In this document: one piece after another, positions 9,076-39,074 of the stretch
Position numbering within the stretch: position 1 is the first letter of the stretch
Layout: every line of letters starts with the position of its first letter
Virus record (IMG/VR): IMGVR_UViG_3300028805_000061
Reading direction: 5' to 3' (one strand)
Length of the DNA stretch: 64,000 nt
From: a virus
Taxonomy: Duplodnaviria > Caudoviricetes
Translations under genes and position numbers: made by a program
The notes under the pieces: generated by a model
The model's database searches: none
Seen by the model: only the letters and a program-made list of their open reading frames with translations
Told to the model about the DNA's origin: nothing

Positions 9076-9612
9076 ATGAATTATCATGATATTACTAAGT
9101 GTGATATGCTTAATGGGGATGGTTTAAGAGTAGTTTTATGGGTTTCTGGTTGTAGTCATCATTGTAAAGGTTGTCAAAATCCACAAACTTGGGATGGAAA
9201 TTCTGGAATTCTCTTTGATGAAAAAGCTAAACAAGAATTAATTGAAGCTTTAAAACCAGATTATATTAGTGGTATTACCTTTTCTGGGGGTGATCCACTA
9301 TATTTATACCACAGAAGAGAAATTTTAGAGCTAATTAAGGAGCTTAAAATTTTATTTCCTATTAAAACTATATGGCTTTATACTGGTTTTACTTTAGAAG
9401 AAATAATACAGTGGCCTATAGGAAAAGAATTACTTTCTTTAATTGATGTTTTAGTAGATGGAAGATTTATTTTAGAAGAAAGAGATCCTAATTTACAATG
9501 GGTGGGGTCACCTAATCAAAGAGTTATTGATGTACAAAAAACTCTCCAATCTTCACATATAATAAAACATTGTGAAGTATACTACGATAGTTATAAGGGT
9601 AAGAGATATTAA
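9076..9612 (+). CDS. nrdG: anaerobic ribonucleotide reductase activating radical-SAM protein
   Basis: NGDGLRVVLWVSGCSHHCKGCQNPQTW, GITFSGGDPL, WLYTGF, DVLVDGRF, GSPNQRVID. Confidence 0.95.
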   Translation: MNYHDITKCDMLNGDGLRVVLWVSGCSHHCKGCQNPQTWDGNSGILFDEKAKQELIEALKPDYISGITFSGGDPLYLYHRREILELIKELKILFPIKTIWLYTGFTLEEIIQWPIGKELLSLIDVLVDGRFILEERDPNLQWVGSPNQRVIDVQKTLQSSHIIKHCEVYYDSYKGKRY

Positions 9613-9645
9613 ATAAAAAGAGGAAGTAGATAATTATCTACTTCC
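9612..9645 (-). terminator. bidirectional intrinsic terminator closing cassette 1
   Basis: Perfect 24-bp palindrome GGAAGTAGATAATTATCTACTTCC (9622-9645) followed by a T-rich tract on the - strand; lies between convergent genes. Confidence 0.85.
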
Positions 9646-9674
9646 AAAGAAGTTTGGTAAAATATTTTGAAGTT
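9643..9674 (-). repeat. cassette 3' conserved element, copy 1
   Basis: TCCAAAGAAGTTTGGTAAAATATTTTGAAGTT, 31/32 identical to 37546-37577. Confidence 0.95.
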
Positions 9675-9679
9675 CCTCC

Positions 9680-10309
9680 TTAATTTCGCTTTGTGAAGGT
9701 TAAAATATCTGTTGTATCACCATTACCCTGCTGACTATAGCGATTATATCCACAACCATAAAGTTCACCATCGTTAGTTAAGTACCATGTTGTTGTATTT
9801 GAACAAGCAAAATCTTTTACATTACTTGCTCTTTGAGTAAACCTTGTAACATCTGTTGTATCGCCTGAACCTTGTTGACCGTAATTATTCCATCCACAAC
9901 CATAAAGTTCACCATCGTTAGTTAGATACCATGTAACGCTACTTGAACAAGCAACTTGTGCTACATTACTTGCTCTTTGAGTAAAATGTCTAACACTTGA
10001 TGTATTTCCTGAACCTTGTTGGCCATAGTTATTACCTCCACAACCATATAATTCACCGTTGTTAGTTAGATACCATGTTGTTATATCTTGGCCAATAATT
10101 TGTGCTACGTTACTTGCACGTTGGGTAAAGGTTAAAACATTCGCTGAACTTCCTGAACCTTGTTGATAATAGTAACTATATCCACAACCATAAAGTTTAC
10201 CATCGTTAGTTACATACCAAGTTGTATAATCTGAGCAAGCAAAATCTTTTACACCACCGGCAATTTTTCGAAATCCTCCAAGGGGTTCCAATTTTGTTTT
10301 TATACCCAT
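9680..10309 (-). CDS. RCC1/BLIP-II-like repeat protein (4 x 48 aa) with MGIKTKLEPLGG tag; putative receptor-binding tip protein
   Basis: Four 144-nt repeats V....CS...TWYLTNDGELYGCG.N.YGQQGSG....V..FTQRASN; RBS AGGAGGTG. Confidence 0.85.
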   Translation of the reverse strand: MGIKTKLEPLGGFRKIAGGVKDFACSDYTTWYVTNDGKLYGCGYSYYYQQGSGSSANVLTFTQRASNVAQIIGQDITTWYLTNNGELYGCGGNNYGQQGSGNTSSVRHFTQRASNVAQVACSSSVTWYLTNDGELYGCGWNNYGQQGSGDTTDVTRFTQRASNVKDFACSNTTTWYLTNDGELYGCGYNRYSQQGNGDTTDILTFTKRN

Positions 10310-10341
10310 AATAATTCACCTCCTAAAATATTTTATCAACA

Positions 10342-10385
10342 TAAAAATACCAGTTAAAAAAAATCCTATATAGGACACTCGAAAA
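10342..10385 (-). promoter_or_regulatory. cassette 5' conserved element, copy 1 (palindrome TCCTATATAGGA plus A8/T8 tract)
   Basis: TAAAAATACCAGTT-A8-TCCTATATAGGACACTCGAAAA, identical to 39029-39074 except tract length. Confidence 0.85.
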
Positions 10386-10465
10386 AGCTTTATCTTTTTA
10401 ACAAAAAGAAAACATTTTTTTCATTTCTATATATACTTATAAATAATTCAAATAGGAGAAAAGAA

Positions 10466-11266
10466 ATGAAGATAGATAAATTTCCATCTAGAATTCAAAG
10501 TATAATAGAAGAATTTGAATCAAAAGAAAATCAGAAAAGATGGAGATATCTTTTAAAGATAGGTAATAAGACATTAGTAGCATCAAGAATAGAATTCAAT
10601 GAAAATACAAATGAAGCATTTGTAAAATATTCAGCGTCATCTTCAAATGGTTATAAAATAAATCCTTTATTCATTGAAAAGCTTTCTGATATACAAATAG
10701 AAAAAACAAATATTATTAGAAAGAAATTAGGATTAAGAGCACCATTAAAAAGAAGACCGATAGAAAGAGATGAATTAGGAATTCCCATTAAAAAACCAAG
10801 AAGAGAGAAAAAGAATAAAGAATTATCAGAATTAGAATTTAAAGCAATGTTTGACCCAAGATTTATTTCTAGTGAAACAAGAGATGAATTATTTGAAGAG
10901 AAAAATCTTTCTGGAGGAGCAAGATTACCAAAGAAAGCATTTAAAAAGATAAAACCTGAATTTAGAGAAGCCGTAAAATCTTTCCTTTCTAAATATATAG
11001 ATTTACATACTATTACAGCTGATTATAAAAGAGATAATTATGGAACACTTTCATTAATAGTAGGAAAAACTTTTACTAATAATGGACAAATTGATCCCAG
11101 ATTTAAAACATATAAAAGCTTTACTTTAATACATAGACAAGGTAAACCTTATGTAAAAGTAATTCAGAATTCAGTGAAAACTGGAACAGATACTATATTT
11201 TATTTAATAAATGAAGATACTTTATTACAAGTTAGTAAAAGTCTTAGGTACAGAAATCGTGGTTAA
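10466..11266 (+). CDS. basic hypothetical protein
   Basis: RBS AGGAG; TATAAATA at 10438-10445 upstream. Confidence 0.7.
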   Translation: MKIDKFPSRIQSIIEEFESKENQKRWRYLLKIGNKTLVASRIEFNENTNEAFVKYSASSSNGYKINPLFIEKLSDIQIEKTNIIRKKLGLRAPLKRRPIERDELGIPIKKPRREKKNKELSELEFKAMFDPRFISSETRDELFEEKNLSGGARLPKKAFKKIKPEFREAVKSFLSKYIDLHTITADYKRDNYGTLSLIVGKTFTNNGQIDPRFKTYKSFTLIHRQGKPYVKVIQNSVKTGTDTIFYLINEDTLLQVSKSLRYRNRG

Positions 11267-11279
11267 AGGAGGGTAAACA

Positions 11280-11420
11280 ATGTCAAATGAACAAAATAAT
11301 TTAAACATTAGAGAAATTGTAAAAGAAGTTGTTAAAGAAGAAATTAAACCCGAATTAGAAAAAATGAAACAACAACAAACTCAACATTTACAAGAAGGTA
11401 ATATGTATTTGAATGAATAA
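11280..11420 (+). CDS. 46-aa hypothetical protein
   Basis: Not in the track; RBS GGGAGG; MSNEQNNLNIREIVKEVVKEEIK...QHLQEGNMYLNE. Confidence 0.65.
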   Translation: MSNEQNNLNIREIVKEVVKEEIKPELEKMKQQQTQHLQEGNMYLNE

Positions 11421-11429
11421 AGGAATTTT

Positions 11430-11786
11430 ATGGAAGAAAAACAATTAGTTCCAGTACAAGAAAGAACTCTTAGGATATATAAACCCTTTATAAGATGTGC
11501 TACTTGTGTTAGAAATATAGATGGACAAAAAATGCAACATGGTTTTTATTCTAAGACATATTGTAATCAATTTAAAGAAACGAGACAAGATCAATACAGT
11601 GCCGATTATAATATAGAAAAAGATAGAAAACTTGCACAACATTGTAAATATTATTTACCAGAAATAGGTACTATTGCTGATTTAACATATCTTGAACCTT
11701 ACGAAATAGTAGATGATATGTTTAAATTAGATAAAGAACATGCTAAAAATTTAAGTGATTTATTTGGTAATAAGTTAAATAATTAG
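11430..11786 (+). CDS. hypothetical Cys-containing protein
   Basis: CATC...YC...HCKYY; RBS AAGGA. Confidence 0.65.
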   Translation: MEEKQLVPVQERTLRIYKPFIRCATCVRNIDGQKMQHGFYSKTYCNQFKETRQDQYSADYNIEKDRKLAQHCKYYLPEIGTIADLTYLEPYEIVDDMFKLDKEHAKNLSDLFGNKLNN

Positions 11787-11850
11787 ATTTTAATATATTT
11801 AATAATATTTATATAAATAATAATGATTAAATATAAGGAGTTAATTTATA

Positions 11851-12630
11851 ATGACTATTTTTAATGGCTTACTAATAATAGCAACTATTTTATTTGTAGA
11901 TCTTATTATAAACTATTTTTTAATAAATTATAGTAATAAAAAATTTGAGAAATATCAAAATAAAATAGATGAATTAGAAAAAGATAATAGAAAATGTTTT
12001 GAACAAATTTCAGGTTTGTTAAATACTTCTGGTAAAACTATAAAATTAATTCAAAAATTTAAAAATCAATCAGGAAATAAATTTCAGAAAATAGATGAAG
12101 ATTTAAAATCTATTATGAGAATGCATAATGATTTAGTAGATATAGTTTATGAAAGTTTTGCTAATGTATATTGTGATCTTAATGAAGAAGATTGTTCTAT
12201 TTGTGAATATTATGATAGATGTTCTAAAAGAGATTCCAGTAAAGAAAATGGATTTATAACTTATACAAAAGAACATCCCTCTGAAGATTCTTGTATAGCT
12301 TGTAATAGACCTATTAGTTATTCTTCAATAATAATAGACCCAAATGATAAAGATTATTTGACTAAGTTAAAATCTACAATGTATAATTCAGGAGTACCAG
12401 AACAAGTAATTAGTCATTATTTAACATATATTAAGGCTCTATTAGAAAAATTGAATCTAGAAGGAAAATATATGGAAATTGCTTGGAATTTTAAAGAAAC
12501 TGATGTAGTCAAAGGGGCTGGAATTATTACTAATAAACCTATAGATAAAAATGAAATAGATAAAGAAAAACTAATAGATCCTAATTCAAAAATAGTTAAA
12601 TCTTTAAATAAACTATATAAACAAGATTGA
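11851..12630 (+). CDS. membrane-anchored coiled-coil protein with Cys cluster
   Basis: N-terminal TM, coiled coil, CDL...CSICEYYDRC. Confidence 0.65.
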   Translation: MTIFNGLLIIATILFVDLIINYFLINYSNKKFEKYQNKIDELEKDNRKCFEQISGLLNTSGKTIKLIQKFKNQSGNKFQKIDEDLKSIMRMHNDLVDIVYESFANVYCDLNEEDCSICEYYDRCSKRDSSKENGFITYTKEHPSEDSCIACNRPISYSSIIIDPNDKDYLTKLKSTMYNSGVPEQVISHYLTYIKALLEKLNLEGKYMEIAWNFKETDVVKGAGIITNKPIDKNEIDKEKLIDPNSKIVKSLNKLYKQD

Positions 12631-12668
12631 TTTATCATTACACTAAAATTCAGAATTCCAGCAATAAT

Positions 12669-12702
12669 AAAACCCTCTATAATATTAAAGGGTTTTTCTT
12701 TG
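12669..12702 (+). terminator. intrinsic terminator
   Basis: AAAACCCT...AGGGTTTT followed by a T tract. Confidence 0.6.
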
Positions 12703-12754
12703 TGTTAACTATAAAAAATTCATAAATACATATATAAATTATAAGGAGAAATAA

Positions 12755-13330
12755 ATGACTTTAGAAGAAAATTTTAGTCTTGAACCTGATGAAATTCTAA
12801 AAGCTATAGAATTTTCAGTAGAGTCAAGAATGAATTTAGAAAGTGATGAACAAGTTACAATAATAACACATCCTTTAACAATAAAAGCTATTAAAATAGG
12901 AATTGCTCAAGGTAAAATATTTAAAAATATTTATTCAAGAATAATATTTTCTCCAGATAGTAATAGTAAACTTAGTGATTTAGTAATTATTCCAGACCAT
13001 TTGATAGATGAAGTAGTTCAAGAAGAAATAAAAAATCATTTAAATGTTGATAATGAAGTAAAAGAGAAATTGAAAATATTAAATGAAAAAATGGATATCC
13101 CTGAAGAAATATTAAATAGAATATCTACTCTTGAAGACAAAGACCTTACTAATGAAGAATTACAATTAAAATGTGAAATTCAAAATCTAATGTTAGATGT
13201 AGGAATGAATATTGATTTACATTTTTCTAATACAGATAGTAAAGAACAAAAAGTAAATGAAATAGTAGATAAATTATTAAAAAATAATAAAATACAAAAA
13301 GTAGGATTAGAAGGAATTAATAATGACTAA
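12755..13330 (+). CDS. hypothetical protein
   Basis: RBS TAAGGAG. Confidence 0.65.
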   Translation: MTLEENFSLEPDEILKAIEFSVESRMNLESDEQVTIITHPLTIKAIKIGIAQGKIFKNIYSRIIFSPDSNSKLSDLVIIPDHLIDEVVQEEIKNHLNVDNEVKEKLKILNEKMDIPEEILNRISTLEDKDLTNEELQLKCEIQNLMLDVGMNIDLHFSNTDSKEQKVNEIVDKLLKNNKIQKVGLEGINND

Positions 13331-13916
13331 GAAAAGAAAGAGTGAACTTAAAATAGGTTATAATGAACTAAAAAATGGTTGCCCTACTGGAGAAAATGTT
13401 TTAGATTTAAAGAACACACCAATCCCTATAGAATCACTAAAAGTATTAATGACTGGAGACTCTAATCAAAAGTTTAGAGTATTATCAAAGAAGATAAATA
13501 GGGAAAATGTTAAACTAGTATTAAAACATAGAGAAACCAATGAAAAACTAAAAATAGTTGCACCAATAGAATTTTTAGAATTTCACAAAATCCCTTATAA
13601 AAATCCCAAAATACCTACTAATAAATTAATTGAAGGTGTTTTACAAGATAGAGTAAGAAATTGGGAATGTGAAGTAATAATTAAAGATCTATCACAAGAA
13701 TATGACTTAGTTATTCTAATTGATATAGATTCACAAAAAAGAATAGCTTGTAAAGTTCCTATAAAAGAGATTGAAAAAACTAAATTATATATAGAAAAAT
13801 GTAAAACTTATAAACAAGCTAATTATTATGATTATAATAAAATAAATATATGGAGGGAGAATGAATGGCAAAGAGAAGTAATGACTCGCCTAAACTTATT
13901 AAAATTAACCCGTTAA
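13323..13916 (+). CDS. hypothetical protein
   Basis: Coupled ORF. Confidence 0.6.
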   Translation: MTKKRKSELKIGYNELKNGCPTGENVLDLKNTPIPIESLKVLMTGDSNQKFRVLSKKINRENVKLVLKHRETNEKLKIVAPIEFLEFHKIPYKNPKIPTNKLIEGVLQDRVRNWECEVIIKDLSQEYDLVILIDIDSQKRIACKVPIKEIEKTKLYIEKCKTYKQANYYDYNKINIWRENEWQREVMTRLNLLKLTR

Positions 13917-14497
13917 ATAATTCAGATGAAAGTTTGATTGCTATTGCAATTCTTAATGCTTTAATTATACTAAGAGCTAAAGAAAACAATTTAATAAAAA
14001 TTCCAGAAAGAAAAGAATTAACTAAATTACTAAAAAATGCAAAGTTAGATAATATATTAAAAGCTTTAGATGAGGTTAATGGTATTAAAATAAAAAAAGT
14101 ATTAGGAGTAGAAGATACATCTCTCACTGGAATTGTTTATATAAACCATCCTTTAAAGGTATTACCTTGTTTAGTATATAGAAACCCCTCTATAAAAGAC
14201 GGTCAAATAAAATTAGTTAATTCTGGTTTAGGAGATGATGAAGTTTTAATAAGTGAACAACTCTTTAATGAAAAATTGTTTGTAGATAATATATTTGCTT
14301 ATCAGATATTTCTAAATACAGGCACTAAAGAATTTTTTAAAGATAAAGAATTAAGTTGTAATGATTGTAATCATTATAGTTTTAATTCAGAAGGAGAAGA
14401 TATTTGTTTATATGATGATATGAACATAAAAGATTGTAATCAATGTTGTAATAAATTTATTGATTGTTTTAAATGGAGAATACCGAAAGGAGAATAA
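13865..14497 (+). CDS. hypothetical protein with C-terminal Cys cluster
   Basis: RBS GGAGGGAG; CNDCNHY...ICLY...CNQCC. Confidence 0.6.
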   Translation: MAKRSNDSPKLIKINPLNNSDESLIAIAILNALIILRAKENNLIKIPERKELTKLLKNAKLDNILKALDEVNGIKIKKVLGVEDTSLTGIVYINHPLKVLPCLVYRNPSIKDGQIKLVNSGLGDDEVLISEQLFNEKLFVDNIFAYQIFLNTGTKEFFKDKELSCNDCNHYSFNSEGEDICLYDDMNIKDCNQCCNKFIDCFKWRIPKGE

Positions 14498-14498
14498 A

Positions 14499-15185
14499 AT
14501 GTCAACAATTCCTGCATTTATAAATGCAATTTTTACTCTTAACAAAAAAGGAGAATACCCTTTATATGAAGGTAATATTGATGGTGGTTATACAAAAGTT
14601 CTTATAGTTTCTAAAATAGCTTCTGGCTATAATACTAGATATTTTAAAGTTAAACAAATTATTGCTTTAGAAGGACAACAAGCTATAATTCAAACTTTTG
14701 ATCTCCCTTCTCAAGAATTTGCTTATAGATTGATTGAAAAATCTATTACTGAAAATGCATATATACAAGGAGGAAATGATGAAGAAAATATACCCATCGT
14801 TATTACAGGACAACAACAGCAACAATCAAAACAACCAGCAAGAATATCAAAGCCTAATATTATTGATCCAGAAAGAATTGGAGAAGATACAGTTTACGCA
14901 GAATACAACAATAATAACGTTAATACCTATCAGCCAGTTGTCACAGCACAGTCTAGAAAACTTGTTGAAGGACATTCAAAAAGACAAAATATGGACCTCC
15001 CAGATTACAATGACGCCGGATTTGATCAACTTGCAGCCTTCACCGGTACCCAGTCAGATGAATTCTCCAGTGGAGAAATTAAGATTGCCAACATGTCCAG
15101 TTTTGGAAATGGATCAAGCTCAAATAGAAATAGAACTAAAGGCAACTACTCTTCCCTTGAAGATGCACTTGACTCTGGATTCTAG
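14499..15185 (+). CDS. hypothetical protein with disordered acidic C-terminal half
   Basis: Start moved to ATG 14499 (RBS AAGGAG); ends SLEDALDSGF. Confidence 0.65.
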   Translation: MSTIPAFINAIFTLNKKGEYPLYEGNIDGGYTKVLIVSKIASGYNTRYFKVKQIIALEGQQAIIQTFDLPSQEFAYRLIEKSITENAYIQGGNDEENIPIVITGQQQQQSKQPARISKPNIIDPERIGEDTVYAEYNNNNVNTYQPVVTAQSRKLVEGHSKRQNMDLPDYNDAGFDQLAAFTGTQSDEFSSGEIKIANMSSFGNGSSSNRNRTKGNYSSLEDALDSGF

Positions 15186-15351
15186 ATTACCTAATACAAT
15201 TTTAATAGATACTAATATAAAGATAGTAAAAGAAAATAATATTGAAGTAATAGTTAAAAGATTAGTAATATCTAGTCTTTTTTCTAATCTTTTAATAATA
15301 CCAGAAAGTTTTGCTGATTTTATAAGAAAGAGAGAAGGTATAAATGTCTGA
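14734..15351 (+). CDS. overlapping +1-frame ORF, true start uncertain
   Basis: Its 3' part is the only ORF covering 15186-15343; the frame stays open about 150 codons into the upstream gene. Confidence 0.45.
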   Translation: MKNLLLKMHIYKEEMMKKIYPSLLQDNNSNNQNNQQEYQSLILLIQKELEKIQFTQNTTIITLIPISQLSQHSLENLLKDIQKDKIWTSQITMTPDLINLQPSPVPSQMNSPVEKLRLPTCPVLEMDQAQIEIELKATTLPLKMHLTLDSRLPNTILIDTNIKIVKENNIEVIVKRLVISSLFSNLLIIPESFADFIRKREGINV

Positions 15352-15568
15352 TTTTGATAAAGATTGGGGATTTGAATGTGATCAATGTGGTCAAACAGTT
15401 GGTGGTGGGATTTATGATTTTGATGAATCTCTTGAACTAAGAAAACAAGAAGGTTGGATTAATAGAAAGATAGATGGTGAATGGTATTCCTTTTGTTGTG
15501 AAGAATGTTATCAAGACTGGGTAGCAGATCATCAATATAGACCGACTCCGAGAAAAATTCATAAATAA
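15344..15568 (+). CDS. zinc-finger (TRASH-like) protein
   Basis: CDQCG...FCCEECY. Confidence 0.65.
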   Translation: MSDFDKDWGFECDQCGQTVGGGIYDFDESLELRKQEGWINRKIDGEWYSFCCEECYQDWVADHQYRPTPRKIHK

Positions 15569-15611
15569 GTTAAATTTACAATAAATACTTATATTTTCTG
15601 GAGTAATATTT

Positions 15612-15926
15612 ATGAATAATAGACAACTAATTGAATCTCTTGAAAAATATACTAAGAAAATTCAGGAAGTTTCTGTGAATAAATGGCAAAGAGGTGCTAA
15701 AAATTCTTTACCAGGTAGAGAATTTGTTAATCTAAAAAATACAGAACTAACATTAGACCCTGACTATTATTCTGATGAACAGAAGCAAAAGATTTTAAAT
15801 AAAAGATTTAAAGATGCTCAAAGATATACTTATGCCAATAAAATAGCTGGATTAGATTTAAAAGATTTTGACACTAATAAAATACCAGCTAGAACAATGC
15901 AAAAAGCTTTAAGGAGTTATAAATAA
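15612..15926 (+). CDS. putative internal head protein with shared leader
   Basis: MNNRQLIESLEKYTKKIQE resembles MDNRTLIESLEY of 7540. Confidence 0.65.
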   Translation: MNNRQLIESLEKYTKKIQEVSVNKWQRGAKNSLPGREFVNLKNTELTLDPDYYSDEQKQKILNKRFKDAQRYTYANKIAGLDLKDFDTNKIPARTMQKALRSYK

Positions 15927-17323
15927 TGAGATTTAATGAAGTTGATATAGAAGTTAAACATTCTGGTTTACTTGAAGTACCTGCTGGTAAAGAAGTAGAC
16001 CAATTACCACAATCACATTTTCAAAAATTGATTGATAAAAAAGGTTATGAAGCTATTATTAGAGGACTTACTAATTTAGAAGTTTGGAATAAGAATAAAA
16101 ATCCTAAACTTAGTCAGTGGGCTTCTAATATGGCAGATAAATTAAAAGTAGTTAATAAGAAAGATGAAGCTTATTCTGGTAAGCTTTTTGAAATGAATGC
16201 TAAATTAGCTAAAAAACTAGGTATTAAAACAGTAACTGGTCTAAAGAAAGCTGGACAATATGCTAAAGATACAGTTGCTAAATCAGCTGATACTGCAAGA
16301 AATGCAATTGTAGCTGGTGCTGTAGCTCCAGTAGGAGCAGCTATAGCTCAAAAATATAGTCATAAGGATAAAAAGAAAGAACCAAGATATACTGCTGCAG
16401 AGGTAGCTGCTCTAGCTGCTGCAATGAAAAACAAAAATGAATCCCTTTCTAATAAATTATTTTCTTATTTGACTATATTAGAAAAAGAACAAAAAGAAGA
16501 ATCTGGAGTTAAAAAAGTTGCAAAAGGAGCTGCTAAAGGAGCTGGTATAGGTTTAGCTGGAGGAACAGCTTTAGGAGCTGGGGTAGGACATACAGTAGGA
16601 AAGGCTTTGACTGGTGGACTCAAAGGTAATTATGCCACTGGATTAGCTGGTGCTGCTACTAAAGGGGTTAGAGCTTTATCAACTGGAGCTGGTGCTGCTG
16701 GTGGAGCAGCATTAGGTTTAACAAGAGGTTTAGTTGGGGGAGCTTTAATAGCTGGAGGAAAACATTTATATGATAAACACAAAGCTAAAAAAGAAATTTC
16801 TAAAAAGAATGAATCCTTAATTGAAGCTTTAAATAGATTAAAAAGTATTTATGAAGAAGAAGGAATCCCTAAAAAGAAAAGAGTTTTAACTCCTGAACAA
16901 AAAGCAAGAAGACAAGAAAGAAGGAGATTGAGAAGACAATTAGAAAAACAAGGTATTTCTACTTCTAAACCTCGTTCTGGTCCAGTTAAAACCATACAAG
17001 GAGAACCTAATTTAGCTAAATCTATTGAAAATGCTAAAAAAGCAAAACAAACTACTAATACAGCAAAAACTGCTGGAGCTGCTTCATCAACAGTAAATAA
17101 GACTGCCGAAACTACTAAGAAATTTGTTTCAGATGGGGTTAAAAAAGCTACAGGAGCTACTAAAAATACAGTTAATAAAACTCTTAGACATTCACAAGCT
17201 TTAAAGAAAGTTTTAAACCGAGCTTCTTTAAGAGGGGGATTAGCTGGTGCTGCTATTACAGCTGGAGTAGGAGCTGCTGGATTAGCTGCTAAGAAAATGT
17301 ATGATAAAAACAAAAAGAAATAA
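15926..17323 (+). CDS. modular cationic glycine-zipper polyprotein (putative head-packaged)
   Basis: Three Lys-rich, Gly/Ala hydrophobic modules separated by KNESL...LE / KNESL...YEE linkers. Confidence 0.75.
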   Translation: MRFNEVDIEVKHSGLLEVPAGKEVDQLPQSHFQKLIDKKGYEAIIRGLTNLEVWNKNKNPKLSQWASNMADKLKVVNKKDEAYSGKLFEMNAKLAKKLGIKTVTGLKKAGQYAKDTVAKSADTARNAIVAGAVAPVGAAIAQKYSHKDKKKEPRYTAAEVAALAAAMKNKNESLSNKLFSYLTILEKEQKEESGVKKVAKGAAKGAGIGLAGGTALGAGVGHTVGKALTGGLKGNYATGLAGAATKGVRALSTGAGAAGGAALGLTRGLVGGALIAGGKHLYDKHKAKKEISKKNESLIEALNRLKSIYEEEGIPKKKRVLTPEQKARRQERRRLRRQLEKQGISTSKPRSGPVKTIQGEPNLAKSIENAKKAKQTTNTAKTAGAASSTVNKTAETTKKFVSDGVKKATGATKNTVNKTLRHSQALKKVLNRASLRGGLAGAAITAGVGAAGLAAKKMYDKNKKK

Positions 17324-17334
17324 GGAGATCAAAA

Positions 17335-17988
17335 ATGCAATTTAATGAAATATTTTCTAATACCCCAATAGATGAATCTATCAAGGGTGAAGCTATTAAA
17401 CAAGGTGCTAAAAAAGCTGCAAGATATGCTAGAGTAATGAGTAAGAAAGCAATAAATAAAACTAAAAAATATTTAAAACAACCTGCTACTAAAGGACAAG
17501 TAATAGGGGCTGCTTTAGTAGGGTCAGCTGTAAGAGGTAAAGCTGAAAAGATTCATCAAGCTAAATTAGCTAAAAAACAAAAGAATGAATCGTTAACTCC
17601 CTTTAAAGAAAAGAAAACAGTAATAGCTAAAAAATACAAAGGAAAAGATTTTAAGAAAATATTTGGTAAAAATAATATAGCTAAAAAAGCTACTAAAAAT
17701 GAATCATTAGTAGAAAAACTTGAAAGAGTTACAAATAATGTTAGAACAACTAATGAAGCTAATTTAGCTGGAATAGGTAAATCAGCAGTAAATGGTTTAA
17801 AAACATTTGGTAAAAATATTGGTGATACAGCTAAAACAGTAGGAGGAGCAATTAAAAAACACCCAGTAAGAACAGCAGCAATTGCAGGTACTGGTTTAGC
17901 TGGTTATGGAGCTTATAAAGGAGTTAAGAAAGCAGTAAATGGAGCTAAGAAAGCTGGTAAAGCTGCTTATCAAGATTGGAAAGTATAA
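17335..17988 (+). CDS. modular cationic glycine-zipper polyprotein
   Basis: MQFNE start; two KNESL linkers; AAIAGTGLAGYGAYKGVKK. Confidence 0.75.
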   Translation: MQFNEIFSNTPIDESIKGEAIKQGAKKAARYARVMSKKAINKTKKYLKQPATKGQVIGAALVGSAVRGKAEKIHQAKLAKKQKNESLTPFKEKKTVIAKKYKGKDFKKIFGKNNIAKKATKNESLVEKLERVTNNVRTTNEANLAGIGKSAVNGLKTFGKNIGDTAKTVGGAIKKHPVRTAAIAGTGLAGYGAYKGVKKAVNGAKKAGKAAYQDWKV

Positions 17989-32218: not shown

Positions 32219-32243
32219 TCATTTTTCTTCTTATATAAACTAA

Positions 32244-32281: not shown

Positions 32282-32327
32282 ATGTAAATTCTTATTATAT
32301 CATATATAAAATCAAAAGGAGGAAGTA

Positions 32328-32966
32328 ATGTCAATATTTTTCAAAAATACTAGTAAAACTAAATCAATTAGTTTAAGATATGGTGATGGTAATAATAATA
32401 TGATTCAATTAAAACCTGGCCAACAACAACCCATACCTTCAATATTTAATAAACAAAAACTACAATCTTATTTACGTTTATTTAAAGATTTGAAAATAGT
32501 AGAAGAACTTGAAGAAATAAAAGAAGAAAATAATGATATAACAGGAGAAGTAAATGGAGATTCTATTAAAGATAATTCAGAAAGTCAATTATCTACACCA
32601 GACGATACCTCAGGAGAACAGCAAGATAATCTTAATTCACAAGATGATAATCAACAGACAGAAAATCAAGAGGGAAACAATGATCCAGTAGTAAATGGAC
32701 CTGTTGAAGGGGAACAGCCAGAAAATCAAGAAGGGGACAATGATCCAGTAATAAATGGGTCTGTTGAAGGAGAACAGACAGAAAATAGAAATACTGAAGA
32801 TCAAGAAAAAGATAAACTTCCTATATATACTGAAAAAGAATTAAATAAATTATCTGCTGGAGAAATAAAAGAGATTGCTAAAAAATTAGGTATTGAAGTT
32901 ACAGAAGATTCTACTAAAAAAGCATTAATACCTGTTATATTAAATAAACAAGGAAAATTAGAATAA
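32328..32966 (+). CDS. acidic protein with C-terminal Rho-N/HeH-like domain
   Basis: LNKLSAGEIKEIAKKLGI......KKALIPVIL; internal 20-aa tandem repeat. Confidence 0.7.
   Translation: MSIFFKNTSKTKSISLRYGDGNNNMIQLKPGQQQPIPSIFNKQKLQSYLRLFKDLKIVEELEEIKEENNDITGEVNGDSIKDNSESQLSTPDDTSGEQQDNLNSQDDNQQTENQEGNNDPVVNGPVEGEQPENQEGDNDPVINGSVEGEQTENRNTEDQEKDKLPIYTEKELNKLSAGEIKEIAKKLGIEVTEDSTKKALIPVILNKQGKLE
32653..32786 (+). repeat. 60-bp in-frame tandem repeat (about 2.2 copies)
   Basis: ENQEGNNDPVVNGPVEGEQP / ENQEGDNDPVINGSVEGEQT / EN. Confidence 0.85.
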
Positions 32967-33877
32967 TGAATAATATGACAAAATATTCTAAAGAGATTAT
33001 AGAAGAATTGTATATTAATCAAAATAAAACTAGAAAAGAGATTTGTGAAATTTTAAAAATTTCTTGTAAAAAGTTTTGTAAGATGATAAAAGATTATGAT
33101 ATATATAAATCTAAAGATAAAATAATTTCTAGAATAAAACAGTCTAACATAAATACTTATGCTACTGGGAAACCTCAAGAAAAAATAAAACAAACTTTTA
33201 TAAAAAATTGGGGAGTTGAAAACCCCAATAAATTACTTACAATTCAGAATAAGAAAATTAATACTTCTTTAGAAAGATATGGAGAATCCCATCCCAATAA
33301 ATCTAAAGAAGTAAAAATTAAAATTTCTCAAAGTAATAAAAAAGTATATGCTACTGGAAAACCTCAAATAAAACAACAAGAAACTTTTCAAAAAAAATAT
33401 GGATATAATACCCCTCTATTAATTCCTAAAATTAGAGATAAGATTAGAGAAGGTTTTGATTCAGGTATTACACAACTGAAAGACTATAAAACCAAAAAGA
33501 AAAATAAATCTTTTAATAAATCAAAACCAGAAGAAGAAGCTTATCAATTACTCTTAACAAAATTTCCAGTAGAAGATATTGAGAGACAATATAGATCTGA
33601 ATTATACCCATTTAATTGTGATTTTTATATCAAATCCTTAGATCTATTTATAGAATGTAATTTTCATTGGACACATGGGAAATACCCCTATACGAATATT
33701 AAAGACCCTTTATTAGAAAAATGGGAAACAAGAAAAGATAAAAAATTCTATCAAAAAGCAATTGAAGTATATACTAGATTCGATCCTTTAAAAAGAAAAA
33801 TGGCTCAACAAAATAATCTTAATTGGATTGAATTCTTTACTTTAGCTGATATTTACAATTATATAAAGGAGTTATAA
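32966..33877 (+). CDS. free-standing homing-type endonuclease (PD-(D/E)XK, Vsr-like)
   Basis: HTH N-terminus, repeated K..T...KYG..NP motifs, SKPE...ERQY...FNCDFYI...DLFIECN.HW.H. Confidence 0.75.
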   Translation: MNNMTKYSKEIIEELYINQNKTRKEICEILKISCKKFCKMIKDYDIYKSKDKIISRIKQSNINTYATGKPQEKIKQTFIKNWGVENPNKLLTIQNKKINTSLERYGESHPNKSKEVKIKISQSNKKVYATGKPQIKQQETFQKKYGYNTPLLIPKIRDKIREGFDSGITQLKDYKTKKKNKSFNKSKPEEEAYQLLLTKFPVEDIERQYRSELYPFNCDFYIKSLDLFIECNFHWTHGKYPYTNIKDPLLEKWETRKDKKFYQKAIEVYTRFDPLKRKMAQQNNLNWIEFFTLADIYNYIKEL

Positions 33878-34773
33878 TGTTATTATTAGAAGAAGCAATA
33901 AGAACAGTTGTTACTTCTCTGGGTAATCAGATCATTCCACTAGAAGCTTTTTCTCTAGATAAAGATACAATACAGCAGGATATGTTTTTACCTACATTAA
34001 GAGAATATCAAGAGTATTTTCCAAACATAAAGACTAAAACTATTACTGCAAATTCATTAGGAGGATCTGATATAGTAATTAATTTACCTGATTGTATTGG
34101 ATCTCCTTTGAGTATGAGATTTGGGGGCTATCCTAATGTACCTCCTTTGAATAGTCTTTATTCTAAACCAGATTGGAGTTGGGATTTTCAAACTAAAACT
34201 CTTCATACTGTAATGGGAGGAGGCCCCTGGATACTTACTTATGCAGCTAATTATACTTTAGAAAATGCTCAAGTAATAGAGTCTTTCCAGACTCTTAAAG
34301 ATGAAGATGAAATCTCCTTTAAAATAAGAGGTGAGTTCAAGGGTAAATCTTTAAAGATTACTAGGAAGAAAGATAAACTTTCAATGAAAGTAGTTGATGT
34401 TTATAAAAAAGATGGACTCACGTATGGGGAATTAGAAGGTCAATTAGGAGCTGGTAGAATTTGTTTAAATGATTTAAGATGTAAACTTGAATTAGATTCT
34501 ACTAGAGACGATGAGCTTATTATAGAATACATTTCTAAATATAAAGCTATACAAGAGTTAACTTTTCAAAATATGGAATTTCTTATTTGGTTTGCAAGTA
34601 AATTACTTACTTCAATAGGTTCTCTTAAACTAATGACTCAATTAGATGGTATGCCATTTAATATTGCAATTGATGATCTAAGAACAAGAGGTCTTGAATT
34701 AGTTAATCAAGTAGAAACTGATTTAAAAGTACAAAAACAAGAATTTTATTCTTGGACAGGAAGTAAATATTAG
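33877..34773 (+). CDS. putative neck/head-tail adaptor protein (gp13-like)
   Basis: Position; C-terminal GMPFNIAIDDLRTRGLEL typical of adaptors. Confidence 0.55.
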   Translation: MLLLEEAIRTVVTSLGNQIIPLEAFSLDKDTIQQDMFLPTLREYQEYFPNIKTKTITANSLGGSDIVINLPDCIGSPLSMRFGGYPNVPPLNSLYSKPDWSWDFQTKTLHTVMGGGPWILTYAANYTLENAQVIESFQTLKDEDEISFKIRGEFKGKSLKITRKKDKLSMKVVDVYKKDGLTYGELEGQLGAGRICLNDLRCKLELDSTRDDELIIEYISKYKAIQELTFQNMEFLIWFASKLLTSIGSLKLMTQLDGMPFNIAIDDLRTRGLELVNQVETDLKVQKQEFYSWTGSKY

Positions 34774-34782
34774 GAGTAGATA

Positions 34783-35436
34783 ATGCCAGATAATTTTAAA
34801 GAATCACCTGATTATAAAGCTGATCAACATATTTCAAAAGAGAATCTAAAAGATTTAGCATTATCTACAACCGATGTAGTTGATGCTTATAATTCTGATA
34901 GGGCTGATAGACTAGAGAATAATTGGACAGCTAAGTCTCTTTATGCTTCTACTATTAGTTTTAAAGCTTGGAGAAAGAAATATTCTAAGCCAGGAAATAT
35001 AGTTTTAAAGAAACCTACTCCCTTTGCTGGTACTTCTTCTATAATGTTTAATGCTACAATGAAGGGTGTTACACAGTATCCAGATTTACATAGAGTAGTA
35101 ATTATGTTTTCAGGTTTGAAATTTGCTAAAGAACCTTTTAAAAATTGTATTGATGTTGAATATAAGGGCAAAGTTTATTATGTAGAAAAACCCAGTCTTA
35201 ATAAAACTACTATAAGAGTTAGATGTTCTTGTAAAGATTTTTATTTCTGTTTTAGTTTATGGGATTATTTGAATAGAGCAATAGTAGGTCCTAAACCTAA
35301 AAAATATACAAGAAAAACACCTCCTCCAAGTCAAGGAGGTAGACCTTATGTAAATCCTGGAAAGATACCTGGTTTATGTAAACATATATTTTGGTTAATG
35401 AGATATTTAAAACAAAAGGGTTGGGTAAGAACATAA
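34783..35436 (+). CDS. SWIM zinc-finger protein
   Basis: RVRCSCKDF...NP...PGLCKHI. Confidence 0.7.
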   Translation: MPDNFKESPDYKADQHISKENLKDLALSTTDVVDAYNSDRADRLENNWTAKSLYASTISFKAWRKKYSKPGNIVLKKPTPFAGTSSIMFNATMKGVTQYPDLHRVVIMFSGLKFAKEPFKNCIDVEYKGKVYYVEKPSLNKTTIRVRCSCKDFYFCFSLWDYLNRAIVGPKPKKYTRKTPPPSQGGRPYVNPGKIPGLCKHIFWLMRYLKQKGWVRT

Positions 35437-35456
35437 AATTTTAAGGAGCAAATAAG

Positions 35457-35831
35457 ATGAATAATACAGACTTAACAGAGAAACTTTGTCTACATATAAT
35501 TAGAAATTCCAACCCTTCAGAAATATCAGAAGGAATAGCTGGTAAAGAAGCTATAAGATTTTTAAAAGACTCTGGTATACTTATTCTTCAAATTAAGAAA
35601 TTAAAAGAAAATCAGGAACTGTTTTTAGACTTGATTGAACCTGTAGGGTTTGTTTCCATATTAAAAGAAGATAATAAATATGTAATAACAATAGTTATTA
35701 AAGGTCAAAAAAGTAAAGTTATAATAGTAGAAAAACCATTAGAAGTTTATAAAAAGATTTTTGATATATTTAAAGATCAAATGACTACTGGTATTAAGAA
35801 TTTGAAATTAAAATATGAAGTCCATAATTAA
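35457..35831 (+). CDS. hypothetical protein
   Basis: RBS AAGGAG. Confidence 0.6.
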   Translation: MNNTDLTEKLCLHIIRNSNPSEISEGIAGKEAIRFLKDSGILILQIKKLKENQELFLDLIEPVGFVSILKEDNKYVITIVIKGQKSKVIIVEKPLEVYKKIFDIFKDQMTTGIKNLKLKYEVHN

Positions 35832-35843
35832 TAAAGGCACAAT

Positions 35844-36149
35844 ATGCTAAATAATACACTTAATGAAATATTTAATGAAGTAGATAAAATAGACACACAT
35901 ACAAATAACCAATGTATGAATTGTGGAGCTAATTTACCCAATGAATATGCTACTAAATGTGAAGTATGTGGTTATGATTGTATAAGTGAATTTAGTTGCC
36001 CATACAAAGTAATAAAACAAATCCCTATACAAAATTCTCCAGTTACTTTAGCATTTTGTGAATTATCTAAAAAACAATGTAATGTACAAGGGTTAGACTT
36101 TGAAATCTGTTCAGTATTTAGAAGTTTAGATTCATTAAAGGATGATTAA
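35844..36149 (+). CDS. zinc-ribbon protein
   Basis: CMNCG...CEVCG. Confidence 0.65.
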   Translation: MLNNTLNEIFNEVDKIDTHTNNQCMNCGANLPNEYATKCEVCGYDCISEFSCPYKVIKQIPIQNSPVTLAFCELSKKQCNVQGLDFEICSVFRSLDSLKDD

Positions 36150-36843
36150 TATGTTTAATAATTATGATAGTTTTTTTCATTTAGATTTATGGGAAAGCTG
36201 TGAAAATGAAACTACTGGCTTTCCCATAAAAAGAAATAATTCTCTTAATAGAATAAATCAAATAATAGAAAAATTTGATAGCTTAAATGAAGCAATTGAA
36301 GTAGATGGTAAATGGTATAATAATTTAGAAGATGTATATCATGTAGGGTCAGCTAAGAAATTTGATGATGCCAGATTTTTATTAAATACCACTAATCCCA
36401 TGAATTTGAAAAAGAAATATTCTAAAGATAATCAATATCCTATAGATTTCTTTATTCAGTTCATTGATCCAAAAACTCTTAAAGTAGTTTCCTTTATGAT
36501 AGTATATGAACAAAATCCTTTTGGGGAAGGTTCTTTTGGTGGACAAAAAAATTGTTGTAGATTGATTCTTTATAAAACAAAAGCTTTTGCAATGGAAAAA
36601 ACTGATACAAAACATAGATTTGCTTTCATAGTAAAAAATGCAAAAGATATTAAAAATATTAAAGAAGATCCTTCTTTAAGAATATTATGGCAAGATGAAC
36701 CAAGAAAAACTATCTCCAATCTTAAACCTTCTGAGATTCATAATGAACTATTAGCTGCTGTAAAAACACTCAATTCAGCTGGTTATATAGTAATAGATGA
36801 TTTTGATGATACTATAGAAAGAATTTTAAATGCCACAAGATAA
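36142..36843 (+). CDS. hypothetical protein with possible head-targeting leader ending LNE
   Basis: LNRINQIIEKFDSLNEAI. Confidence 0.55.
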   Translation: MINMFNNYDSFFHLDLWESCENETTGFPIKRNNSLNRINQIIEKFDSLNEAIEVDGKWYNNLEDVYHVGSAKKFDDARFLLNTTNPMNLKKKYSKDNQYPIDFFIQFIDPKTLKVVSFMIVYEQNPFGEGSFGGQKNCCRLILYKTKAFAMEKTDTKHRFAFIVKNAKDIKNIKEDPSLRILWQDEPRKTISNLKPSEIHNELLAAVKTLNSAGYIVIDDFDDTIERILNATR

Positions 36844-37261
36844 AAGAACAGCTACATATAAAATCTTAAAAGCTAATATCCCTATAATTGAATCCTTATT
36901 AGCTGTAAAAGAAAAATCAGAAGGCTATAGATGTTTAGTATATTTTCCAATAGGTACTGATTCTGTTTATGGAGTATTAGATCAATATACTTACTATAAG
37001 AAACCTGATTTAGATAAACTATTTGTTTGTTTGTCTGCTGTTCAAGAATCCTGGCAAGGTACAATAGATGGTACACAATATGATCCATTTTTAAGTGATC
37101 CTCCAGTAATATTAACTACATTTGAAAAGAAATTACCTATAATGAGTAAAGTAGTTCTTTATTATAATGAAGGAATTAGAATTTTTAGAGTAGCTTTTCA
37201 TAGATCTTATGATGGTGCTAAACCTTATTTAATAAGAAATATGTTACAACCATTAAGTTAA
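36830..37261 (+). CDS. putative head closure/neck protein (gp14-like)
   Basis: G..C.VYFP...DSVYG....Y.Y...PD pattern; structural context. Confidence 0.45.
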   Translation: MPQDKRTATYKILKANIPIIESLLAVKEKSEGYRCLVYFPIGTDSVYGVLDQYTYYKKPDLDKLFVCLSAVQESWQGTIDGTQYDPFLSDPPVILTTFEKKLPIMSKVVLYYNEGIRIFRVAFHRSYDGAKPYLIRNMLQPLS

Positions 37262-37322
37262 TTTTAAAGTTATAAGCTTACATCCCTTATTAAAATATGA
37301 AATTAATAGGAGAAAATTTAAT

Positions 37323-37526
37323 ATGGATGAAGAATTAGAGAATAATTATAATACTTCTTATATAGTTATTCAGGAAATTGATACAATGGTAACAAAATCT
37401 ATTACTGTTTTAGGAGAATTTGAAAATGAAGAAGAGGCTAAAGAATTTATAAAGTATTATAAAACTATTCAAAAGCCTGTTTCTGGCTATATAAAATATA
37501 GAATATCTCTTTTTTATAGAAAATAA
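37323..37526 (+). CDS. hypothetical protein
   Basis: RBS AGGAG. Confidence 0.6.
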   Translation: MDEELENNYNTSYIVIQEIDTMVTKSITVLGEFENEEEAKEFIKYYKTIQKPVSGYIKYRISLFYRK

Positions 37527-37548
37527 AAGGAGAACATAAATGTTCTCC
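37521..37548 (-). terminator. terminator closing cassette 2
   Basis: GGAGAACAT-AA-ATGTTCTCC stem (37529-37548) followed by TTTTATTT on the - strand; same position as the cassette 1 hairpin. Confidence 0.8.
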
Positions 37549-37577
37549 AAAGAAGTTTGATAAAATATTTTGAAGTT
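37546..37577 (-). repeat. cassette 3' conserved element, copy 2
   Basis: TCCAAAGAAGTTTGATAAAATATTTTGAAGTT, compared with 9643-9674. Confidence 0.95.
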
Positions 37578-37581
37578 TAAA

Positions 37582-37671
37582 CTAATATTTCTTAGTAAAA
37601 GTCCAGACATTAGCAGTACTACTATCACCTTGCTGACTATAAAAATATTTCTTATATAATTTCTTTTTCAT
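37582..37671 (-). pseudogene. chimeric 29-aa remnant: foreign N-terminus plus last 19 aa of an RCC1-repeat gene
   Basis: MKKKLYKKYF-YSQQGDSSTANVWTFTKKY* compared with YSQQGNGDTTDILTFTKRN* of 9680..10309; RBS GAAAGGA. Confidence 0.75.
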
Positions 37672-37687
37672 AATTTATATCCTTTCG

Positions 37688-38998
37688 TTAATAAGGTTTG
37701 CAAGAGAGGGAAGCACCAAAGTTACTATAGGTAGAAGGACTATCGCTTAAAGGGCTGTTGTAAGCCAGATACACAGAGAAAAGACCACCATTGGATATGG
37801 CATTGTAGTAGCCACCAAAATAAGCACAACCAACGAGCGAGCTGGAAGAGCTCAGGGCGCAGCCGACTTGGTCGCAGTAGTAAGTATAATTTGAACCAGG
37901 GGTTGGATAGCCTGAAGAAGGAAAGTACCACATAATACCATCTGAAGTATTAGGCACTCCTAAATTGCATAAATTTATACCTCCAACTCCATTATATCCA
38001 GTATACGATTTATAACCTGGGCTACTACTTGTTGGGTCATAACTAATAGCAGTGGTTCCATCTGCTGTATAATTACACAACTTATAAAATATTTTTGATT
38101 GATAACAAGTTAAACCATTTATCCATTTATTACAATTACCCCATAAGTTTTCCATACCAAAGAATTTAACAGGTGTAGTGCTTGATGAAGTATTATTTGT
38201 AGAATAGAACATAGGCTTATCTTTTAATGAACCAGTAGAAGTCGTTTTTGTACCGCCTACAACTCCACCTCCACATTTACTTTGGCTATCTCTTGATTTA
38301 AACATTAAAATAAATAACATCTGTATCATTTGTAATGTTCCTAAGTCAAGAAAATCCCAACCGTTACCATTTGCTTGAGCATAAGTTCTCATTGTAGTAC
38401 CAGCAACTGTATTTACTAGAACAGTCCGTCCTGCTAAACTTCTTAATGTACTACCTGTCAATGATGGTTCAAAAGCTGCTGTATAAATTTCATCAAGTAA
38501 AATACCATTATTGTTATAATGTGAATAACAATGGTATTTGCCATCTACATTTTCAGGAGCTATAAAAACATATTGATATCTGCCTGTTGCGTCGGTGCTT
38601 AAATTAGTACCATCTGCTGAATTTGAAGTTCTAAATTTAAGCCAAACTTGTGGAAAACCTATCATGCAGTTTCCTTTGTATTGTCTATTACTTATATCAC
38701 TTTCAGTTCCATCAAGTTTCTTTGTAAAATCATTATGATCTAATTCGTAATCAACTGTTCCATCATACTTTAACATTACAGGTCTTGGCTGAAAGAAAGC
38801 ATTTTCCCAACTACCATAATCTAATTGACCTGTTGTAAAATCCATGCTCGCAGGGGTATAATCAGCGTTATTGCCAAAATATGTTACTGCTGTTGTGGGA
38901 TCAGAATTTGTGGTGTCTATTATAAAGCAATATTCTTCTGCGTTTCCACCTCTTTTTATTAAACCCCCTAAAGGTTCCAATTTTGTTTTTATACCCAT
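37688..38998 (-). CDS. C-type-lectin-fold (Mtd/FGE-like) receptor-binding protein with MGIKTKLEPLGG tag; DGR-target-like C-terminus
   Basis: Reads on the - strand (CCCAT at 38994-38998; track label + is wrong). FFGMENLWGNCNKWING...YYCD...FGGYY....NGGLFSV.L......S.FGASLSCKP. Confidence 0.85.
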   Translation of the reverse strand: MGIKTKLEPLGGLIKRGGNAEEYCFIIDTTNSDPTTAVTYFGNNADYTPASMDFTTGQLDYGSWENAFFQPRPVMLKYDGTVDYELDHNDFTKKLDGTESDISNRQYKGNCMIGFPQVWLKFRTSNSADGTNLSTDATGRYQYVFIAPENVDGKYHCYSHYNNNGILLDEIYTAAFEPSLTGSTLRSLAGRTVLVNTVAGTTMRTYAQANGNGWDFLDLGTLQMIQMLFILMFKSRDSQSKCGGGVVGGTKTTSTGSLKDKPMFYSTNNTSSSTTPVKFFGMENLWGNCNKWINGLTCYQSKIFYKLCNYTADGTTAISYDPTSSSPGYKSYTGYNGVGGINLCNLGVPNTSDGIMWYFPSSGYPTPGSNYTYYCDQVGCALSSSSSLVGCAYFGGYYNAISNGGLFSVYLAYNSPLSDSPSTYSNFGASLSCKPY

Positions 38999-39028
38999 TT
39001 TACTAATCTCCTTTTTAAAAGTATTTTT

Positions 39029-39074
39029 TAAAAATACCAGTTAAAAAAAAAATCCTATATAGGACACTCGAAAA
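39029..39074 (-). promoter_or_regulatory. cassette 5' conserved element, copy 2 (palindrome plus A10/T10 tract)
   Basis: TAAAAATACCAGTT-A10-TCCTATATAGGACACTCGAAAA. Confidence 0.85.

Follow-up and report, generated by a model that had tools for sequence, protein, structure and literature searches.

In phages of the T2, T6 and S16 type, the separate small adhesin gp38, whose gene lies beside the fibre gene, sits on the distal gp37 tip and determines the receptor. It attaches via a folded N-terminal domain, and each fibre carries one adhesin. Phage genomes also harbour morons, which in Hendrix's concept are autonomous promoter-gene-terminator inserts. In KP32, K11 and KP34, which are podophages of Klebsiella, one receptor-binding protein (RBP), RBP1, has a branching domain and a second, RBP2, has an N-terminal docking peptide (PMC6872550; PMC13352976). 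RBP2 is no longer incorporated once its first 29 residues are removed, and a foreign enzyme domain can be mounted on the peptide (PMC13352976). The variable protein Mtd is thought to attach through its N-terminal beta-prism (PMC10743442). Here we describe a set of genes for putative adhesins in a tailed virus (Duplodnaviria; Caudoviricetes; IMG/VR record IMGVR_UViG_3300028805_000061), of which one stretch of 64,000 nucleotides (nt), the window, was analysed. An earlier note on the window had pointed to two minus-strand genes, A and B, that share a short N-terminal peptide (the tag) and flanking elements, and had read them as scattered cassettes whose binding domains dock through the tag onto one virion site.

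Our analysis suggests that the tag is the plug for a C-terminal socket domain of tail fibres, and that this plug-and-socket system mounts interchangeable adhesins on the fibre tips; we put the probability of this reading at roughly 0.6. Docking of the tag to the fibre tip is supported at the level of comparative genomics because the tag recurs directly after socket genes. Physical docking, presence in the virion and the promoter function discussed below are inferred. Since more tag genes with varied bodies were found in the genome and in its relatives, we rate the interpretation of the earlier note as supported.

The tag genes of the genome

The window covers positions 60620-124619 of a record of 144,741 bp and 27.7% G+C, nearly all of whose genes lie on the plus strand. 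The two ends of the record (1-139 and 144603-144741) form a direct terminal overlap of 139 bp at 99.3% identity, and the assembly is therefore read as complete and circular; although classed as linear, the record probably represents a whole genome that is either circular or terminally redundant.

Among the open reading frames (ORFs) of the window, A and B are the only credible minus-strand genes, as had been stated. The whole genome holds four tag-bearing genes, A, B, D and E, the latter two outside the window, with the consensus (M)GI[KR]TK[LF][EN]P[LM]GG (Table 1). In A, B and D the tag is MGIKTKLEPLGG, the same in 12 of 12 residues, with differing codons for P, L, G and G. The common N-terminus described for A and B was confirmed: the first 26 nt are identical, with zero such matches expected by chance in shuffled sequences, and are followed by the synonymous differences CCC/CCT, CTT/TTA, GGA/GGG and GGA/GGT.

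The bodies behind the tag are unrelated, again in agreement with the earlier description: A carries RCC1 repeats recognised by Pfam (RCC1_2, E 6.7e-23 and 80.3 bits with a cut-off of 22; RCC1, 57.7 bits with a cut-off of 21.7), whereas B matches by fold the C-type lectins of the Mtd/TaqVP kind. Gene A also matches PHROG RCC1 and tail-protein families. It shares 77% of its nucleotides with gene D, of which it is, by sequence, a shortened paralogue, and it lies in a nucleotide-metabolism region beside NrdG. Gene D starts 60 nt downstream of the tail fibre gene F1, on the same strand.

In cassette E the tag, GIRTKFNPMGG, is internal, being preceded by an N-terminal domain of 118 residues and a Ser/Lys linker. 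The body is Ig-like, with 38% identity to a tag-bearing protein of another phage, and the C-terminus is a Hint/mini-intein domain without a C-extein, ending ...VILHNAITG. The Cys of ...YGCITGDT may be a site of self-cleavage or ligation by which fibre accessories of the E type are processed. A relative of E in locus L004 has the same build with the tag at the N-terminus. The existence of further cassettes with varied adhesin domains, which the earlier note had named as support for its reading, is borne out by D and E in this genome and by at least seven body types elsewhere.

Occurrence of tag and socket in other phages

The fibres F1 and F2 end in the same all-beta domain of about 100 residues, the socket. 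In F2 it occupies the last 100 residues or so, beyond the end of the window, ends ...GTYLLAFRTMDAGSTFIGNVQGKW and matches the socket profile at E 5e-38. The profile retrieved 2,290 cluster representatives (50% identity) at E <= 1e-3, in proteins of 81-1931 aa, nearly all of which carry the domain at their very C-terminal end. It has matches among PHROG tail-fibre families, and no match was found in Pfam or NCBIfam.

The least biased test of synteny used loci fetched via the socket domain alone, which gave 18 distinct socket genes. A canonical tag gene lies 0-60 nt downstream on the same strand in 12 of the 18; two or three others are followed by a diverged tag (MSLKTSFFTIGGG, MSTLVTSFTPLGS), and one has an internal tag two genes downstream. 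No tag gene lies downstream of the remaining two, F2 and the socket gene of L023.

Elsewhere in phages and prophages the tag reads M-G-I-[KR]-T-K-[LF]-N-P-[LM]-G-G and was found on at least seven unrelated bodies. A degenerate DNA scan of IMG/VR for the tag gave two contigs in which the tag genes, encoding one RCC1 protein, one unknown 388-aa protein and one Hint-domain protein, come directly after a fibre gene ending ...FRT.DGGTTWLGNLQG.W. Contigs with homologues of B have the same gene order, the socket there being a stand-alone adaptor of 127 aa; one such copy belongs to a diversity-generating retroelement (DGR), since a reverse transcriptase follows. A second type of tag, with the N-terminus M..SKK/Q-M/L-LL, occurs on B homologues of 64-75% identity. 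These type-2 tags follow fibres with a variant socket that lacks FRT.DGG.TW.GNLQG.W.

Homologues of the 181-aa protein encoded in the window follow the tag gene(s) in related loci, and the protein is the third member of a conserved trio of fibre, tag protein and X. It is 54% identical to its L025 homologue; no Pfam or NCBIfam match was found for it, and the homologue in L026 carries PF14301 (DUF4376). It is possibly a fibre assembly factor. Alternatively, therefore, the tag could be a real docking motif whose partner is this third protein, possibly an assembly chaperone, or some other baseplate or fibre site. Synteny is as strong for the third gene as for the socket, and fibre assembly proteins commonly bind fibre tips, as the Tfa proteins of P2 and Mu do. 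However, the third gene, including the N-terminal half of its product, stays of one type whether the locus has a type-1 or a type-2 tag, whereas the socket changes with the tag, and L007 has a reverse transcriptase gene between the tag gene and the third gene. A partner other than the socket is thus unlikely in our judgement.

The socket model (predicted local distance difference test, pLDDT, 96) is moderately like modules in PDB that are C-terminal or serve attachment in phage spikes and fibres (VIA Z 5.8, 5.6 and 4.2). It superposes on ESM-atlas viral clusters with a template modelling (TM) score of about 0.8 and a root-mean-square deviation of 1.7-2.0 over 91-95 residues, and some of these clusters carry PF26209 Phage_phiTE_241_C or PF18668 Tail_spike_N. 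A comparison of the socket profile with the C-terminus of phiTE gp241, the founder of PF26209, gave no sequence link (hhalign probability 0.4%). A socket adaptor had one weak match in GenBank phages by tblastn, and cultured phages in GenBank gave no close socket homologues. Among socket proteins with C-terminal extensions no natural fusion of socket and tag was found. A 1:1 co-fold of the socket with tag residues 1-30 scored 0.00, a result that counts neither for nor against binding. The searched literature held no paper with the tag or socket motif strings.

In Pectobacterium phage phiTE (JQ015307; locus L034), the fibre gene gp241 (13689..16070) is followed by gp242 (16109..17350), which encodes a hypothetical protein of 413 aa with propeller-like repeats (..NGDLYVTGS..) and a short N-terminus ending in GG. 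The two may represent, in a phage that has been cultured, an analogous pair of fibre and propeller; no sequence similarity of the two to socket or tag was shown.

A different N-terminal motif, M-A/S-x-x-D-T-I-T/S-x-x-G-N-x-I-I-x-L-V, recurs in socket adaptors, in a Collar-domain protein and in long fused RBPs. In P0009, for instance, the B body is covalently fused to a fibre shaft that begins, like the 127-aa socket adaptors, with this motif (MALSDTITELGNSIINLV); the fusion speaks for the plug-and-socket reading. This motif may be a docking peptide one level up, from adaptor to baseplate or fibre.

Selection on the tag

The synonymous changes between A and B had been taken to point to selection on the peptide. 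A set of 19 tags from different loci upholds this view: the residues are kept while the codons vary, G11 and P9 using four codons each, and the codon differences comprise 680 synonymous and 591 residue-changing ones. Judged by these sequences, the tag is under protein-level selection. It also occurs as an internal motif in E and L022. The disorder predicted for tag and linker in the B model (below) and the internal tags fit a linear docking motif.

One could argue that the shared frame and tag are only scars of recent duplication and gene conversion, with the constraint acting on DNA or on the mRNA at the translation start region, and that the peptide has no function. A, B and D have their first 26 nt in common although A and D are only 77% identical overall, and the mosaic upstream regions (below) bespeak repeated recombination, both of which such scars would explain. 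Nevertheless, many unrelated phages keep the peptide while its codons vary freely, and it is also found internally, far from any start codon. A functionless peptide is, on this evidence, very unlikely.

The combination of a short shared N-terminal leader with unrelated bodies also recalls the internal proteins of T4, whose capsid-targeting leaders direct them into the prohead as cargo and are cut off by the prohead protease; the internal-protein loci of T-even phages are polymorphic cassettes, too. If the tag were such a leader, an (L/I)-x-E cleavage context would be expected, but none is present: the tag ..TKLEPLGG has Lys at P3, and position 8 is Asn rather than Glu in 15 of the 19 tags. Furthermore, the linkage of the tag genes is with fibre genes rather than head genes, and the bodies have adhesin folds, the family of B being a tail-protein PHROG and a DGR target. 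The chance that the tag is a capsid-targeting leader is very slight indeed.

Gene B and its RCC1 remnant

The model of gene B is confident as a whole (pLDDT 88.5, predicted TM score 0.91), with residues 1-18, that is tag and linker, below 50 and disordered. Foldseek matched its fold to TaqVP (5vf4, E 1e-9) and Mtd (E about 3e-3), then to FGE and PvdO. B belongs to phrog_5302, a tail protein (E 6.6e-51), covering profile positions 155-544 of 548 (the C-terminal 390), and has 340 homologues; no match was found in Pfam or NCBIfam, nor for the B region by megablast in GenBank phages. In a PDB profile search the sole match of the B family was TaqVP, which was marginal (E 0.033) and aligned over a different range from the fold match. 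Proteins closely homologous to B (55-71% identity) start with MGIRTKLNPLGG, MGIKTRLNPMGG or MGIRTKFNPMGG and continue with Gly/Ser-rich linkers, while some homologues of the B body bear long N-terminal fibre parts instead, as an alternative form.

The B homologues P0013 and P0020 have a reverse transcriptase gene adjacent to them. In L007 (3876..5018) and in the P0020 contig, a DGR reverse transcriptase gene is inserted after the tag-bearing lectin gene and ahead of the third conserved gene. Because the reverse transcriptase adjoins it there, the lectin plug of the L007 and P0020 relatives is regarded as a DGR target, and as an orphan in the present genome.

Downstream of B lies a remnant of an RCC1 gene, 29 codons of a last repeat, which along 97 nt shares 74% identity with A at its 3' end. 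Because the 3' homology extends into this remnant, the frame at B must formerly have held an RCC1 gene whose body was replaced. The run of 26 identical nt followed by synonymous changes at the start of A and B is best explained if an RCC1 cassette recombined with an incoming lectin gene, already equipped with a tag of its own, and the crossover fell inside the part coding for the tag. This exchange would have left the RCC1 fossil at the 3' side. The fossil would then record a swap of binding bodies inside a fixed frame, with the tag-coding sequence as crossover point.

The shared cassette frame

Genes A and B are flanked by the same elements. On the 5' side these read TTTTCGAGTGTCCTATATAGGA, T8 or T10, and AACTGGTATTTTTA; the upstream element of 44 and 46 nt described for the two genes is, as stated, common to both apart from the length of this T-tract. 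The tract lies between the palindrome and an AACTGGTATTTTT box and counts T8 upstream of A (10356-10363), T10 upstream of B (39043-39052) and T11 at cassette E (genome position about 129270). Slippage in the T-tract could alter the spacing of palindrome and box. In the 144.7-kb genome a 28-mer of the element has only three occurrences, each of them on the minus strand, and minus-strand genes are the only ones preceded by the 5' core, which lies in divergent intergenic regions. The exact element has no match in IMG/VR, and the 5' frame gave no RNA-structure signal above shuffled sequences (z 0.5). The upstream regions are mosaic, A and B sharing the distal element and B and D the part proximal to the ribosome-binding site (RBS). 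The 5' frame is presumed to be a promoter/operator region; because no sigma-70 consensus fits all copies, its role as a promoter is an assumption.

On the 3' side the element said to be 31/32 identical between A and B was found as described, zero copies being expected by chance in shuffled sequences. The hairpins of the two terminators likewise have the same relative position with unlike stems, as claimed. Intrinsic terminators are predicted directly after the single gene in A, B and E. At E both the 5' and the 3' frame are recognisable but diverged, and the terminator is strong. The earlier description of self-contained, scattered cassettes holds for A, B and E, which are dispersed in this genome; it does not extend to the relatives, which keep the tag gene in the fibre operon.

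Table 1. Positions of the features. Window positions count from the first letter of the 64,000-nt stretch, genome positions from the first letter of the 144,741-bp record.
Feature	Reference	Coordinates	Strand	Description
Gene A	window	9680..10309	-	209 aa; tag MGIKTKLEPLGG, short linker, four RCC1 repeats
Gene A tag codons	window	10274-10309	-	encode MGIKTKLEPLGG
5' frame A	window	10342..10385	-	TTTTCGAGTG + 12-bp palindrome TCCTATATAGGA + T8 + AACTGGTATTTTTA
3' frame A	window	9643..9674	-	AACTTCAAAATATTTTACCAAACTTCTTTGGA
Terminator A	window	9622..9645	-	intrinsic; 10-bp stem + T-run
Gene B	window	37688..38998	-	436 aa; tag MGIKTKLEPLGG, linker, C-type-lectin body ending GASLSCKPY
Gene B tag codons	window	38963-38998	-	encode MGIKTKLEPLGG
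5' frame B	window	39029..39074	-	same element as in A, with T10
RCC1 fossil	window	37582..37671	-	29 codons of last RCC1 repeat, MKKKLYKKYFYSQQGDSSTANVWTFTKKY*
3' frame B	window	37546..37577	-	31/32 identical to A copy
Terminator B	window	37529..37548	-	intrinsic; 8-bp stem of different sequence + T-run
181-aa protein (X)	window	39843..40388	+	homologues follow tag gene(s) in related loci
Tail fibre F2	window	61726..64000	+	1281 aa; runs off the window, on to genome position 126190
Tail fibre F1	genome	29591..31330	+	579 aa; ends in socket domain
Gene D	genome	31391..32611	+	406 aa; about eight RCC1 repeats; tag identical to A/B
HNH-type gene	genome	126294..126872	-	192 aa; = L003 908..1486; occupies slot directly after F2
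Cassette E	genome	128039..129223	-	394 aa; = L027 1940..3124; about 3.4 kb past window end
Second N-terminal motif	L006	1230..1691, 1697..2080		carriers of the motif
Second N-terminal motif	L007	1767..2150		carrier of the motif
Second N-terminal motif	P0009			carrier of the motif

The antisense HNH gene behind F2 is also preceded by the 5' core (25/28 nt); it has no obvious RBS, no tag and no 3' frame. It may have taken the place of a plug gene formerly located behind F2. At the end of the fibre module, a plus-strand gene (genome 126968..127969) for a family-2 glycosyltransferase (E 3e-17) lies between the HNH gene and cassette E.

The genome contains no match to reverse transcriptase (PF00078), no second copy of the B 3' end that could serve as template repeat, and no match to a resolvase or invertase family. 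All copies of the frame are in direct orientation. A shufflon is ruled out by the lack of an invertase family and the direct frame copies, and a DGR by the lack of both reverse transcriptase and a template repeat of B. With neither invertase nor reverse transcriptase in the genome, the system is, as had been maintained, distinct from a shufflon or a single DGR locus.

The location of A, B and E also invites the view that their products are not virion parts but soluble or cell-associated lectin-like products of morons, which could act, for example, in superinfection exclusion, decoy binding or binding to the host surface, the tag being left over from a fibre operon. The three genes are antisense with a frame of their own, A beside NrdG among the genes of nucleotide metabolism, and the HNH gene uses the same 5' core. 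The tags of A and B have nonetheless stayed identical to that of D in 12 of 12 residues despite synonymous drift, which argues for continued selection on the peptide after dispersal. Moreover, F2 bears a socket with no adjacent plug, so it would need partners in trans. We therefore hold it improbable that A, B and E act outside the virion.

Proposed mechanism

In the plug-and-socket reading, the tag peptide would bind the socket at the fibre tip, and a flexible linker would join it to an unrelated binding body. One fibre type would carry different adhesins, and the tips would show several receptor-binding heads. The ancestral layout would have been the fibre gene, then the plug gene(s), then the gene of the 181-aa type, a layout that F1-D would keep once. 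A, B and E would have been relocated as antisense, moron-like units within a portable frame made up of the promoter/operator region (12-bp palindrome and T-tract), the RBS, and the 3' element with its terminator.

Several observations weigh against this reading. Synteny and the co-variation of tag and socket could arise without contact between the proteins because adjacent genes are co-inherited. Loci L004-L008 provide no independent test of synteny, since they were found through the tag or the B body. F2 has no tag gene after it. The likeness of the socket to known branching domains, namely T4 gp10 and the XD of CBA120, is weak, with Z about 4 and Foldseek E above 1; the values were Z 4.2 and 3.8 with the N-terminus of CBA120 TSP4, and E 8.6 with T4 gp10. 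The 5' frame shows no clear sigma-70 consensus that fits all its copies. A further caveat is that the dispersed, self-contained form of the cassettes was seen in this genome only.

A wider proposal is offered tentatively and is, in our opinion, somewhat doubtful. Tag and socket could be a docking pair, widespread and transferable among uncultured phages and prophages, that has been uncoupled from the fibre operon in the present genome. Adhesins from the separately regulated antisense cassettes, possibly phase-variable through the T-tract, would compete for the tips, and the differing mixtures of heads on individual virions would give a stochastic host-range repertoire that involves neither inversion nor a DGR.

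If docking is true, ORFs that start with MGI[KR]TK[FL]NP[LM]GG can be annotated as fibre-tip adhesins, and the unannotated socket domain, in 2,290 clusters, marks the sites of adhesin attachment. The pair would also be a compact natural connector for placing foreign binding domains on phage fibres, and it would show how a phage can be multi-adhesin without inversion systems or DGRs.

Comparison with known systems

The novelty of the system had been overrated in the earlier note, because the docking-peptide principle is established in the Klebsiella podophages (PMC6872550, PMC13352976). The principle is already known, and the present pair is new in sequence, peptide length, partner position and phage type. 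As in the KP32 type, the secondary RBP has no anchor domain, only a short conserved N-terminal peptide; the presumed partner domain is on a neighbouring fibre or spike gene, and unrelated bodies can be mounted via the peptide. Adjacency of the genes, as in the KP32 type, holds for D and most related loci, but not for A, B and E. Unlike in KP32, where 29 residues were deleted, the peptide has 11-12 residues and another sequence. The socket is at the extreme C-terminus of fibres and small adaptors rather than being an internal gp10-like domain behind an N-terminal anchor. The carriers, furthermore, are large myovirus-type phages and prophages from metagenomes, not podophages, and as many as four plug genes occur in one genome, of which three are dispersed and antisense. 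Should docking prove true, the connector would parallel the Klebsiella docking peptide, but its tag is much shorter and its spread far wider.

The proposed separate adhesin on a fibre tip, encoded next to the fibre in the case of D and the relatives, resembles gp38 of T2, T6 and S16. It differs from gp38 in having a 12-residue peptide and dispersed cassettes. With Mtd of BPP-1 (1yu0-1yu4) and TaqVP (PDB 5vf4), the B body shares the C-type-lectin fold of variable proteins. In contrast to DGR systems, however, the genome has neither reverse transcriptase nor template repeat, and unlike Mtd, B has a peptide tag only and no beta-prism. The ESM-atlas clusters with PF26209 or PF18668 are alike in structure to the socket (TM about 0.8) without sequence similarity to it.

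Similarly, A, B and E resemble morons in being single genes with an upstream element and an intrinsic terminator of their own, placed antisense between their neighbours. Unlike morons, several of these units share one portable frame and encode what appear to be virion parts for adsorption. The unusual parts of the system are the dispersed antisense cassettes with a shared frame, the fossil of a cargo swap and the very short tag.

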